Below, piece by piece: positions 23,899-26,250 of a stretch of 64,000 bases of DNA (positions within the stretch are counted from its first letter, which is position 1; every line of letters begins with the position of its first letter). Source of the stretch: Actinomycetota bacterium (lineage in GTDB: Bacteria; Actinomycetota; Actinomycetes; JACCUZ01); assembly GCA_030841035.1 (NCBI GenBank), contig JAVEDI010000037.1:314-64313 (forward strand), given 5' to 3'. The position numbers were made by a program, and so were the translations under genes. The notes below the pieces were generated by a model that did no database searches, had not been told where the DNA came from, and worked only from the letters and a program-made list of their open reading frames with translations.

Positions 23899-24813
23899 TC
23901 AGGGCAGCGGCGGACCCTTCTCCAGCATCCCGGCCGCGAGGTCGCCCAGCTGCTCGACCCGGGCAAGGACGTCCTCGGCCCGGAACTGCAGGTCTGCGGC
24001 GCGCCGCGCGCTCTCGACCTCGTCCCAGGTGACCGGCGTGGACACCCACGGCTGGTCGCGGGCCCGCAGCGAGTACGGGGCGACGGTGGTCTTGGCGGCG
24101 CTGTTCTGGCTCCAGTCGAGGAAGACCTTCCCGTCACGCAGGTTCTTGGCCATCCGGGACAGCACGAGGCCGGGGTGCGCCTTCTCGAGCGCCTTGGCCA
24201 TGTCGTGCGCGTAGTCCGACGTACGCCGGTCGCTGGACGGCGTGATCGGCGCATACACCTGCAGGCCCTTGGACCCGCTGGTCTTCACGACAGGTGTCAA
24301 CCCGTCAGCGGCCAGGCACTCACGCACCAGCTGCGCCACCTGGGCGCACTCCAGGATGCCGGCAGGTGCGCCCGGGTCGAGGTCGACGACCAGCAGGTCG
24401 GGGGCGCGGACCGCTCCGCGCGGCCCCACGGACCACTGCGGCACGTGCAGCTCGATCGCGGCCAGGTTTGCCGCCCACACCAGGGTGGCGAGGTCGTCGA
24501 CCACGACGTAGTCGACCTCCTCACGGTTCTTGCTGCTGCCCGGTGCCGGCAGCCGCACGGTGCGCACCCACTGCGGCGTACCCCGCGGCGCGTTCTTGGC
24601 GAAGAAGCCCTTGCGCTGCACGCCGTCGGGGTAGCGCACGAACGAGGCGGGCCGGTCCCGGACGTGCGGGACGAGCGCCGGCGCGATGCGGGCGTAGTAG
24701 TCGATCACCTCCCCCTTGGTGAAGGCGGCCTGCGGGTAGAGCACCTTGTCCAGGTTGGTCAGCGACAGCCGCCGCCCTGCGACCTCGACCGTCGACCGGT
24801 CCCCCTCCGCCAC
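23899..24813 (-). CDS. NHEJ LigD polymerase (primase-polymerase) domain protein, standalone
   Basis: LigD PolDom signatures (VEVAGRRLSLTNLDKVLYP, KTSGSKGLQVYAPI). GTG start preceded by GGAAGGGG SD. Confidence 0.75.
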   Translation of the reverse strand: MAEGDRSTVEVAGRRLSLTNLDKVLYPQAAFTKGEVIDYYARIAPALVPHVRDRPASFVRYPDGVQRKGFFAKNAPRGTPQWVRTVRLPAPGSSKNREEVDYVVVDDLATLVWAANLAAIELHVPQWSVGPRGAVRAPDLLVVDLDPGAPAGILECAQVAQLVRECLAADGLTPVVKTSGSKGLQVYAPITPSSDRRTSDYAHDMAKALEKAHPGLVLSRMAKNLRDGKVFLDWSQNSAAKTTVAPYSLRARDQPWVSTPVTWDEVESARRAADLQFRAEDVLARVEQLGDLAAGMLEKGPPLP

Positions 24814-24915
24814 CCGTTCGCCCCTTCCGGTCCTCCAGCGCTGCGCGCACCCGCTCAGGTCACCATGATCCCCACCGCCTCGAGCGCCCGAACGCGGCAG
24901 CGGCCCCCCTCCTTC

Positions 24916-24968
24916 GTGATCGTGAGGGGATCCGGCACCTTTTCGGTGCCGATCCGCCTCACGATCAC
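24916..24968. repeat. 53-bp imperfect palindromic repeat, copy 1
   Basis: GTGATCGTGAGGGGATCCGGCACCTTTTCGGTGCCGATCCGCCTCACGATCAC. Second copy at about 28447..28499 differs by a single base. Confidence 0.7.
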
Positions 24969-25093
24969 GGGGAGAGGCGGGCACGCGAAGGGCCCCGGCC
25001 ACCTGCTGGTGGCCGGGGCCCTCCCGGTGCGCCCCCGGTCGGTCCGGGAGCGGGTACAGCTGCCTCGGCCGCGTACGGTGACCACCCTTCAGG

Positions 25094-25363
25094 TCACCGT
25101 ACGGCGGCAAGGGTGAGGAGGCGGCGCGCGCGCACAGTAGCCTCCTCGGCGCGCCGCTGTGCCCGCAAGGCACGTACGACGCGGCGGGAGCGCTCCTGGC
25201 GCAGGAGCTCCTCGCGACGGGCCGAGGCATGAGCCCGGGCCAGGTCTTCATGGATCAGTAGCATTGCCTTACCCCTGTTCAGGATGTCGTTCATGGTCTG
25301 CGGTCGTAGCCGGGCGGGACCCTCGAGGTCCGGTCCGTCGACGGACGAGTGGGCGATGGTCAT
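25094..25363 (-). CDS. small Arg-rich hypothetical protein overlapping whiB7 stop
   Basis: About 89-codon ORF; ATG overlaps the whiB7 TGA (ATGA). Confidence 0.3.
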   Translation of the reverse strand: MTIAHSSVDGPDLEGPARLRPQTMNDILNRGKAMLLIHEDLARAHASARREELLRQERSRRVVRALRAQRRAEEATVRARRLLTLAAVR

Positions 25364-25677
25364 GCCGCGACCTGCGACTTGCGGGGACGACCACGCGGAC
25401 GTTTGCGCGGCACCACGGCTCCCTGCACGAACCACTCCCCACCCCAGACCCCCCATGGCTCGCGGCGCTCGAGGGCGCCGGCCAGGCAGCCGAGGCGGGC
25501 GGGACAGTTGGTGCAGAGGGACTTGGCGTACTCGACGTCTGCGGGTGACTCGGCGAAGAAGGGCTCCGGGTCGTTGGTACGGCACGGGAGCTGGTCGTCC
25601 CTGAGTGTGTTCGAGGTCGGCTGCCCGGGAAACGCTGACGCGACGTCCGCCTCCCGGGTGAGCACGGCGAGCTGCAT
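25360..25677 (-). CDS. whiB7: WhiB-family transcriptional regulator, WhiB7-like (C-terminal AT-hook)
   Basis: Four Cys (C-x20-C-x2-C-x5-C), G[V]WGG turn motif, C-terminal AT-hook RKRPRGRPRK. Located downstream of uvrD2 exactly as in mycobacteria. Confidence 0.75.
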   Translation of the reverse strand: MQLAVLTREADVASAFPGQPTSNTLRDDQLPCRTNDPEPFFAESPADVEYAKSLCTNCPARLGCLAGALERREPWGVWGGEWFVQGAVVPRKRPRGRPRKSQVAA

Positions 25678-25770
25678 CGGGGTCACCTCCTTGTTCTGTG
25701 TGGTGGTCAGTCGGCTGGTGGCTGGCTGGGCACTGGCTCGGGTCGTCACTTGTGATGACTTCCTGCTCGG

Positions 25771-25802
25771 TCCGGACTGGTCGGTCCGGACTGGTCGGTC
25801 GG
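25771..25802. repeat. tandem direct repeat (TCCGGACTGGTCGG)x2+ in whiB7 leader
   Basis: Two full 14-bp units plus a partial one, between the leader terminator and the whiB7 RBS. Confidence 0.6.
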
Positions 25803-25806
25803 AGGG

Positions 25807-25849
25807 CAAACAAAAAGGCCGCGGATCCCGGGTGTCGGGTTCCGCGGCC
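25807..25849 (-). terminator. intrinsic terminator/attenuator hairpin in whiB7 leader
   Basis: On the minus strand, GGCCGCGGA-N15-TCCGCGGCC (perfect 9-bp stem with nested CCCG/CGGG) followed by TTTTTGTTTG. Lies about 130 nt upstream of the whiB7 start and about 25 nt downstream of the uORF stop. Confidence 0.55.
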
Positions 25850-25876
25850 TCGAGGGCTGCCGGTGAAGGAGTGGTC

Positions 25877-26155
25877 CTATACCGGCGGACTCCAGGAGCG
25901 GATCCCCGCGACGCCGTCGAACACGACATCACTGATCGGGAGCAGAGTGGTGGCCTCGTGCGTGGCGGTGGGCGCGATCGCGGGCACACGGGTCCCCTGG
26001 AACGTGCCACCGGTAGCCGCCGCGTAGCCGGCGAGAAGGCCGCTGGTCACCGACGTGCGCATGAGCTCGACCTGGGCCAGGCCCTCGATCGGGAGCGAGG
26101 CGGCCGGGCGCAGACGAGCGGAGCCCGTCCACCGCTGGGTCATGGTCTTCTCCAT
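25877..26155 (-). CDS. leader uORF (92 codons) of whiB7 attenuator
   Basis: ATG preceded by GAGGAGG SD at an 8-nt spacing; stops just before the terminator hairpin. Confidence 0.4.
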   Translation of the reverse strand: MEKTMTQRWTGSARLRPAASLPIEGLAQVELMRTSVTSGLLAGYAAATGGTFQGTRVPAIAPTATHEATTLLPISDVVFDGVAGIRSWSPPV

Positions 26156-26221
26156 CAGGGCCACCTCCTCGTCTGCTCTCGCGCGAGCCCGCAGATGCGG
26201 GTGCGTCAGTTCGTGTGAATG

Positions 26222-26250
26222 AGAGTAGAGGCGACGGCAGTCACGTGCAA
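26222..26250 (-). promoter_or_regulatory. candidate sigma-70-type promoter for whiB7 leader (TTGCAC-N17-TACTCT)
   Basis: Hexamers with a 17-nt spacer on the minus strand, overlapping the last codons of uvrD2 and about 50 nt upstream of the uORF SD. Confidence 0.3.

Follow-up and report, generated by a model that had tools for sequence, protein, structure and literature searches.

We found that the leader of whiB7 in a 64,000-nucleotide stretch of DNA from an uncultured Actinomycetota bacterium (contig JAVEDI010000037.1, positions 314 to 64,313; this whole stretch is hereafter the window) very probably attenuates transcription in a ribosome-dependent manner, as do the published systems of the whiB7/wblC type. 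In actinobacteria, intrinsic resistance to antibiotics that target the ribosome has WhiB7 as its master switch, and translation stress is sensed through the whiB7 leader; attenuation of whiB7/wblC leaders mediated through a uORF (upstream open reading frame) was reportedly also the subject of work by Lee, Lee and Roe in 2022 and by Burian and Thompson in 2018. We observed directly the elements of the switch and their conservation, two alternative folds that both show covariation, a fixed spacing between the uORF stop and the terminator hairpin, and a coding signature in the uORF. An earlier note, made from the letters of this DNA alone, had proposed the same type of attenuator, and the sequence-level features that we examined agree with it, with the exception of alanine enrichment in the uORF. 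The mechanism is already published (Dinan 2014; Poulton 2023), and the present case places it in an uncultured lineage of soil actinomycetes, where the complete switch (autoregulated promoter, long uORF, antiterminator and terminator) appears to be almost unchanged. In Mycobacterium marinum and M. bovis, the transcription start site, the uORF, the attenuation and the stem-loop have been mapped, and the transcripts start upstream of the uORF (Dinan 2014, PMC4128351).

All coordinates of the leader refer to the minus strand, which was read from 25200 to 26500 in a window of approximately 70% GC. The leader separates the stop codon of a uvrD2-like gene (TGA, 26243-26241) from the start codon of whiB7 (ATG at 25677), a distance that the earlier note gave as 560 bp and that we measured as 563 bp; the transcribed leader would be close to 540 nt long, since the promoter overlaps the uvrD2 stop codon. 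This promoter consists of a -35-like hexamer, TTGCAC (26245..26250), and a -10-like hexamer, TACTCT (26222..26227), 17 nt apart, so that the pair reported at 26222..26250 is indeed there, and the putative transcription start would lie at about 26215. Further downstream, a strong Shine-Dalgarno (SD) sequence, GAGGAGG (26164..26170), precedes by 8 nt the ATG of a uORF of 92 codons plus TAG (25877..26155, stop at 25879-25877; MEKTMTQRW...AGIRSWSPPV), also as previously described. The uORF stop is followed, 27 nt later (not about 25 nt, as first estimated), by a predicted intrinsic terminator hairpin (25815..25851) with the core arms GGCCGCGGA (25849-25841) and TCCGCGGCC (25825-25817). The 9-bp GC stem and the nested CCCG/CGGG stem of the earlier description are both present, the latter with a 5-nt loop, but the pairing reaches 11 + 4 pairs. 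The U-rich tract TTTTTGTTTG (25807..25816) comes immediately after the hairpin and about 130 nt before the whiB7 start; the hairpin lies about 390 nt past the uvrD2 stop. The fold of the terminator has an energy of -33.4 kcal/mol (z -4.2), and none of 200 shuffled sequences folded as well. We also located an antiterminator and an A/T tract, which were absent from the earlier note.

The comparative evidence comes from a scan of a genome collection with the WhiB7 protein, which yielded 80 loci, 79 of them with upstream sequence. These loci span uncultured soil actinomycetes, Sporichthyaceae, Pseudonocardia, Dactylosporangium, Plantactinospora, Micromonospora, Intrasporangium and others. The closest of them, at 65-90% identity, are from uncultured soil actinomycetes, and the organism has soil metagenome-assembled genomes (MAGs) and Sporichthyaceae as its nearest relatives. 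Counts of uORFs and promoters were made on 66 distinct leaders, folding on 74, and covariation on an alignment of 76 sequences, and the window together with its 18 closest relatives (L001-L018) was treated as the window's clade of 19 members. Two of the loci bear unexpected labels, a Spirochaetaceae MAG (L015) and Candidatus Melainabacteria (L035); both are typical actinobacterial uvrD2-whiB7 loci with a full leader, and their contigs were probably mis-binned in the source assemblies.

When the hairpin was searched as GGCCGCGGA-N8-24-TCCGCGGCC, allowing at most one substitution per arm, it was found a single time upstream of whiB7 at 78 of the 79 loci for which such sequence was available. The sequence of the terminator arm is nearly invariant across several orders, and T-rich tails past the hairpin are present in most relatives, although weaker in many Micromonosporaceae. 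On the 76-sequence alignment, 96.8% of the cells of the terminator are paired, and seven pairs changed on both sides, compared with 1.4 in shuffled alignments (0/500 reached the observed number). Among the Mycobacteriales, Nocardia farcinica and Tsukamurella share the layout of the leader with a related hairpin, which in N. farcinica is the compensated variant GGCCACGG...CCGTGGCC. From these comparisons, the window's leader is a typical member of a widely kept architecture. A permissive cmscan of 24500-27000 returned only sub-threshold chance matches, and the whiB7 leader has no entry in Rfam 15; the sole Rfam match overlapping the leader was Acido-1 (25815-25886, opposite strand), which scored 19 bits where 50 are required.

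The 5′ arm of the terminator has a second potential partner at the end of the uORF. Folding placed both in an antiterminator of 73 nt (25836..25908), a long imperfect stem with the uORF stop in its apical hairpin. The 5′ strand of this structure is formed by the last ~10 codons of the uORF (25908-25890, CGGGGATCCGC..CTGGAG), and the 3′ strand (25858-25836) by the bases just before the terminator and the terminator 5′ arm. In the outer helix, the partner of GGGATCCGC, which contains the Gly-Ile-Arg codons, is GCGGAACCC in the terminator arm; in the middle helix, CTGGAG pairs with the bases directly 5′ of that arm; and the apical hairpin, CCGGT...ACCGG, includes the stop codon. This fold has an energy of -40.4 kcal/mol (z -3.86), and one of 200 shuffles was as good. 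Once the terminator 3′ arm is included, the global minimum (-70.9 kcal/mol) is the terminator state, as would be expected of a kinetically controlled switch. Just upstream of the antiterminator, the folds of the window and of one relative (L008) include a further hairpin inside the uORF (25908..25932, codons for SDVVFDGVA), which may serve for pausing or as a guide to folding.

Each leader was folded without the terminator 3′ arm, in imitation of the nascent RNA. Under these conditions, 8 or more of the 14 nt of the terminator 5′ arm paired upstream in 69 of the 74 distinct leaders, and in nearly all of these leaders the partner was located within the last ~40 nt of the uORF (positions -27 to -16 from the stop in the window). 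As an alignment-free control, a 30-nt segment was slid along each uORF and its duplex with the terminator 5′ arm was evaluated; the uORF tail was the single best partner in 40 of 66 leaders (median z -2.8), a result that position alone would give in about 10%. On the 76-sequence alignment, 83.2% of the cells of the antiterminator are paired, versus 50% or less when the partner was slid, and three pairs of the middle helix switch between clades (CG/UA, AU/GC and GC/AU). The earlier note had suggested structure prediction and covariation of the terminator and antiterminator alternatives as a check; both folds were found, and the covariation appears to support each of them.

Several points weigh against the attenuator interpretation. 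The transcription start, the translation of the uORF, termination, induction, autoregulation and the argument based on the ribosome footprint are steps that we infer for this organism. A simple consensus scan flagged neither the promoter, because it is too far from TTGACA/TATAAT, nor the hairpin, because its loop exceeds 8 nt; direct folding and the comparison of the family were used in place of that scan. The antiterminator submitted to the covariation test was derived from the same sequences, by mapping the per-sequence folds to alignment columns, and its covarying pairs represent a few switches at the level of clades rather than many independent events. RNAalifold recovered only the terminator and the middle helix from the whole alignment, and only the middle helix when the 76-sequence alignment was truncated before the 3′ arm; it misses the outer helix, whose register differs between clades, and the per-sequence folds and the sliding duplex control were therefore used. 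In the window itself, the uORF tail is in the top ~5% of partners of the 5′ arm but is not the single best one: 3 of 72 upstream segments were as good, the best of them at -174 nt. This mid-uORF complement has inconsistent positions in the relatives and was dismissed as a product of chance in GC-rich sequence.

The alanine content of the uORF must be added to these adverse points. Alanine enrichment has been reported as universal for ten mycobacterial, Streptomyces and Rhodococcus uORFs (PMC10274678), and the uORF of M. smegmatis, with 83 codons, contains 24.1% alanine (bioRxiv 10.1101/2025.10.10.681568). We did not find it here: alanine makes up 14.1% of the window uORF and 14.0% over the 66 uORFs, versus 15.7% in the adjacent helicase. 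Alanine enrichment is, however, a reported property and not a mechanistic requirement, and its lack in these leaders suggests that the family as a whole does not share the alanine-tuned behavior proposed for the mycobacterial uORF.

The evolution of the uORF provided further evidence about its role. SD sequences of the GGAGG type precede the uORF in the 66 leaders analyzed, in which its length ranges from 55 to 195 codons with a median of 87, in agreement with the great variation in length and sequence described for whiB7 uORFs (PMC10274678); the 92 codons of the window are an ordinary length, given the 83 codons of the M. smegmatis uORF. The distance between the stop and the hairpin is held at 21-31 nt in 64 of the 66 leaders. 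The GC content by codon position is 0.65/0.61/0.88 in the window uORF, with a mean of 0.67/0.59/0.80 over the leaders, and the other two frames contain two stops and one stop, respectively (means of 2.0 and 0.9). The bias at third positions has the appearance of a coding signature. Within the window's clade, the ratio of nonsynonymous to synonymous change (pN/pS) is 0.98 for the whole uORF and 1.10 outside the tail, with many insertions and deletions. In the last ~28 alignment columns, pN/pS falls to 0.50 in frame, compared with 1.34 and 1.08 in the shifted frames, and synonymous change is the same as elsewhere (pS 0.345 vs 0.341). The variation in the last five codons (W-S-P-P-V) among the 19 sequences is all synonymous, and the core pairing codons of the tail are frozen at all three positions. 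These patterns indicate that the body of the uORF evolves neutrally, and that only its tail is under purifying selection, seen there in frame and not in the shifted frames. On conservation of the uORF, another check that had been proposed for it, the outcome is therefore split: its frame stays open and its SD, tail and stop position are kept, but the body of the peptide is not.

This combination bears on the idea that a functional small protein is made from the uORF, on one transcript with whiB7, and that the hairpin is a leaky inter-cistronic terminator with no ribosome sensing. The coding-like bias at third positions, the strong SD and the purifying selection on the C-terminal columns would all agree with a protein, and the equivalent frame of Tsukamurella tyrosinosolvens (NZ_LR134451.1, L082, 1037-1240) is annotated in RefSeq as a hypothetical protein of 67 aa (WP_139286280.1). 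Nevertheless, a pN/pS close to 1 over the body, the abundant indels and the wide range of lengths are difficult to reconcile with it; the peptide has no match to a Pfam or NCBIfam family; the conserved tail coincides with the region of RNA pairing; and codon swaps in the uORF have shown that its amino-acid composition, and not a protein product, sets the response (PMC10274678). We consider this explanation very improbable. A frame, an SD, a stop position and a tail that are kept around a body that is free to change would fit a translated sensor better than a protein gene. In practical terms, the 92-codon frame should not be called a protein gene, and the RefSeq entry shows how leader frames of this kind find their way into protein databases, where they stand as spurious genes.

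All 19 sequences of the window's clade end the uORF with TAG, whereas TAA, TAG and TGA all occur in leaders of the Micromonosporaceae type. The AG of this codon is paired, in the window's clade, inside a small stem at the apex (AGGA/UCCU), a possible reason for the fixation of TAG.

The region of the promoter also carries the A/T tract AAGAAAATTGA (26251..26261), located directly 5′ of the -35 hexamer and within the last uvrD2 codons. We observed that an A/T tract, 2-4 nt before TTGNNN and followed after 17-18 nt by TA(G/A)NNT (TANNNT), is present upstream of the uORF in 62 of the 66 leaders, and that TTGCAC is identical in 18 of the 18 closest relatives. Across both strands of the 64-kb window, the pattern TTGNNN-N16-18-TANNNT has only four sites, and the whiB7 site alone has an A/T-rich stretch just upstream. 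An A/T motif is required at the WhiB7-dependent promoter, and the AT-hook of the protein has been described (PMC3905903); the tract of the window is likely a WhiB7 AT-hook binding site, which would imply autoregulation.

The position of this promoter is relevant to another explanation, in which the hairpin and its U-tract are the terminator of uvrD2, whiB7 is transcribed from a promoter downstream of the hairpin, and the 92-codon frame arose by chance. The uvrD2 gene is indeed directly upstream, on the same strand, in 75 of the 78 related loci, so that synteny has no discriminating power, and long chance frames are common in a GC-rich window (9 and 25 of the 66 leaders have no stop in the +1 and +2 frames, respectively). 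Yet the hairpin stands far from the uvrD2 stop, and it is exactly at that stop that the conserved promoter with its A/T tract is found; between the terminator and whiB7 (25807 to 25677), neither the consensus scan nor the TTGNNN-TANNNT pattern search revealed a promoter-like site. Moreover, the frame always has a strong SD, its stop is held at a constant distance from the hairpin although its body diverges freely, its tail is complementary to the terminator arm, and the mapped mycobacterial transcripts begin upstream of the uORF (PMC4128351). The earlier note had itself raised the possibility that the hairpin only terminates uvrD2, and the whiB7 locus of Tsukamurella is informative in this regard. 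There, the upstream neighbor is an unrelated divergent gene and uvrD2 is missing, but the promoter (AAAAATAAC-TTGTGC-17-TACTGT), the uORF (67 codons, SD-led) and the hairpin past its stop are all retained. The shared layout of N. farcinica, with its compensated hairpin, also speaks against a hairpin that serves uvrD2 only. With this evidence, a terminator dedicated to uvrD2 seems a remote prospect, and the hairpin should not be read as one; it may additionally stop read-through from uvrD2, which is compatible with the attenuator.

According to the attenuator model, transcription would begin at about 26215 from the SigA-type promoter, where the AT-hook of WhiB7 is expected to occupy the A/T tract flanking the -35 hexamer and to generate positive feedback. 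A ribosome would load at the strong SD and translate the 92-codon uORF behind the polymerase. If the transcript were left alone, 25908-25890 would pair with 25858-25836 to form the 73-nt antiterminator, with the uORF stop at its top. A ribosome that reached the stop unimpeded would cover about 15 nt on each side, a span made up of the 5′ strands of both the apical and the middle helix, and would abut the outer helix; the antiterminator would then be melted, the 5′ arm would pair with the 3′ arm (25825-25817), and transcription would end at the U-tract, with about 130 nt still to go to whiB7. If the ribosome stalled earlier, the tail would stay free, so that the antiterminator could form before the 3′ arm was made, allowing read-through into whiB7. 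The stall could be caused by ribosome-targeting antibiotics or by a shortage of any of the 18 amino acids encoded in the window uORF, from which only cysteine and asparagine are absent. After read-through, WhiB7 would bind the A/T tract via its AT-hook and amplify its own transcription (cf. PMC3905903).

It could be proposed that the attenuator has an extra layer, in which the tail peptide, with Pro-Pro before the stop, slows termination or release, and/or the spacer after the U-tract, with its TCCG repeats, serves as a Rho loading backstop. The peptide would hold the ribosome on the antiterminator strand, and in this way set a default OFF state; we regard this layer, like the Rho backstop considered jointly with it, as unlikely. 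The tail reads ...LLPISDVV.FDG.AGIRSWSPPV-stop in the window's clade and ...GVPPRGRPV-stop in Micromonosporaceae, and most clades again have a proline at -2 or -3 from the stop, which would be in line with a role of the peptide, as are the halving of nonsynonymous change in the tail with no alteration of synonymous change and the wholly synonymous variation of its last five codons. However, the first and second codon positions are mostly paired and bulges or loops hold the variable third positions, so a constraint on the RNA alone could mimic this pattern; in addition, the same CCGGT that encodes Pro-Val also forms the 5′ strand of the apical hairpin. The C-rich spacer (25763-25806) has a negative GC skew in 19 of the 19 clade members (-0.09 to -0.43), and its composition is rut-like, which invites the speculation that it is a Rho loading site; but the family-wide mean skew is -0.05, about zero, and the C-rich spacer is specific to the clade. 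If either were true, the peptide or the Rho layer would be an addition not described for whiB7 leaders in the literature examined.

The same spacer contains the tandem repeat that had been listed as part of the leader, which Tandem Repeats Finder located at 25763..25800 (14-nt unit, 2.7 copies). Its presence was thus verified, but not the weight given to it: the 14-nt repeat is absent from the relatives, where a reiterated (G)TCCG is found instead, and we rejected it as a conserved functional part of the switch. It probably arose by local expansion of the TCCG motif that is reiterated in this spacer.

We compared the window's leader with those of Mycobacterium and Streptomyces through their published descriptions. 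It belongs to the same gene in the same uvrD2-whiB7 neighborhood and shares with them a putatively autoregulated SigA-type promoter with an A/T motif at -35, a long SD-led uORF followed by a GC stem-loop and a U-rich tail, and a predicted antiterminator that uses the 3′ end of the uORF. In M. smegmatis, the last alanine codon of the uORF, GCG, is part of the antiterminator and essential for it (bioRxiv 10.1101/2025.10.10.681568), and the alanine codon in the ...GCG GGG ATC CGC... of the window corresponds to it. Unlike the leaders of M. marinum and M. bovis, this one is longer (about 540 vs 350 nt); its uORF has 14% alanine, compared with 24% in M. smegmatis; and the tail peptide AGIRSWSPPV and the C-rich repeat spacer, both clade-specific, together with an uncultured host, distinguish it from the whiB7 leaders studied so far.

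Other leader-controlled systems show a partial resemblance. As in trpL, leuL and hisL of E. coli, three RNA segments compete, the position of the ribosome selects the fold, and the stop is close to the shared structure. In contrast to those leaders, the uORF has 92 codons, not 14-30; it controls a transcription factor and not a biosynthetic operon; and it lacks a run of regulatory codons. No amino acid is enriched in it, its longest run is AAA, and the tandem regulatory codons of the trp, leu and his leaders are absent; it would thus behave as a general sensor of translation stress, not of one amino acid. With the erm leaders, vmlR, msrD, vgaA, lmo0919/rli53 and are5sc/tiaA of Streptomyces (PMC12421871), it shares a stalled ribosome that would flip a structure and turn resistance on, through terminator/antiterminator or SD-masking structures in those cases. 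Unlike the window uORF, which is long, has an unconstrained body and is expected to mediate a broad response, the uORFs of those leaders have 3-20 codons and encode arrest peptides specific to a class of drug.

The gene controlled by this leader (25360..25677, minus strand) encodes a product of 105 aa with four cysteines, EPWGVWGG and the C-terminal AT-hook RKRPRGRPRK, ending in ...RKRPRGRPRKSQVAA. The AT-hook, which had been singled out as diagnostic, was recognized by a domain search with Pfam AT_hook (0.0035), along with Whib (8e-15). The best match among solved structures was M. tuberculosis WhiB7 (7KIF, 2.4e-29), with an alignment that spans the AT-hook, and the paralogues WhiB, WhiB1, WhiB3 and WhiB4 scored 3e-8 or worse in the same comparison with the PDB. 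The WhiB7 class is characterized by an Fe-S domain with four cysteines, an EPW triplet and a G(V/I)WGG turn, and a C-terminal AT-hook (PMC3905903); all three modules are recognizable in the sequence, which points to a gene of this class. Its SD, AAGGAGG (25686..25692), is kept in the relatives as GGAGGTGA(C/A)ACC-ATG. In nine close relatives (L003, L005, L006, L008-L011, L013 and L017), a conserved 'gagag...ATGGCTCTCC' motif is found 70-90 nt ahead of the whiB7 start; it is absent from the window and may represent a second small open reading frame or an alternative N-terminal extension of WhiB7.

Upstream of whiB7, the uvrD2-like gene (26241..28499, minus strand) encodes a helicase of the UvrD/PcrA type with NCBIfam PcrA/UvrD matches, and its final codons contain the whiB7 promoter. 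A near-perfect palindrome of 54 nt, with 25-nt arms GTGATCGTGAGGGGATCCGGCACC...GGTGCCGATCCGCCTCACGATCAC, is present at 24916-24969 and again at 28447-28500, with 98% identity between the copies. The copies precede by about 55-70 nt the likely true starts of two DNA-repair genes, a ligD polymerase-domain gene and uvrD2, respectively. BLAST revealed no further copy in the window and none in the 80 related loci, and the first copy has no match in Rfam. The repeated sequence could be a shared operator, or a hairpin of the 5′-untranslated region, that co-regulates both genes. Two additional strong hairpins, at 24976-25035 (28-nt arms, 82% complementarity) and 25063-25112 (21-nt arms, 81%), adjoin the palindrome in the gap of about 500 nt that separates ligD from the whiB7 stop, an intergenic region with an unusual degree of structure.

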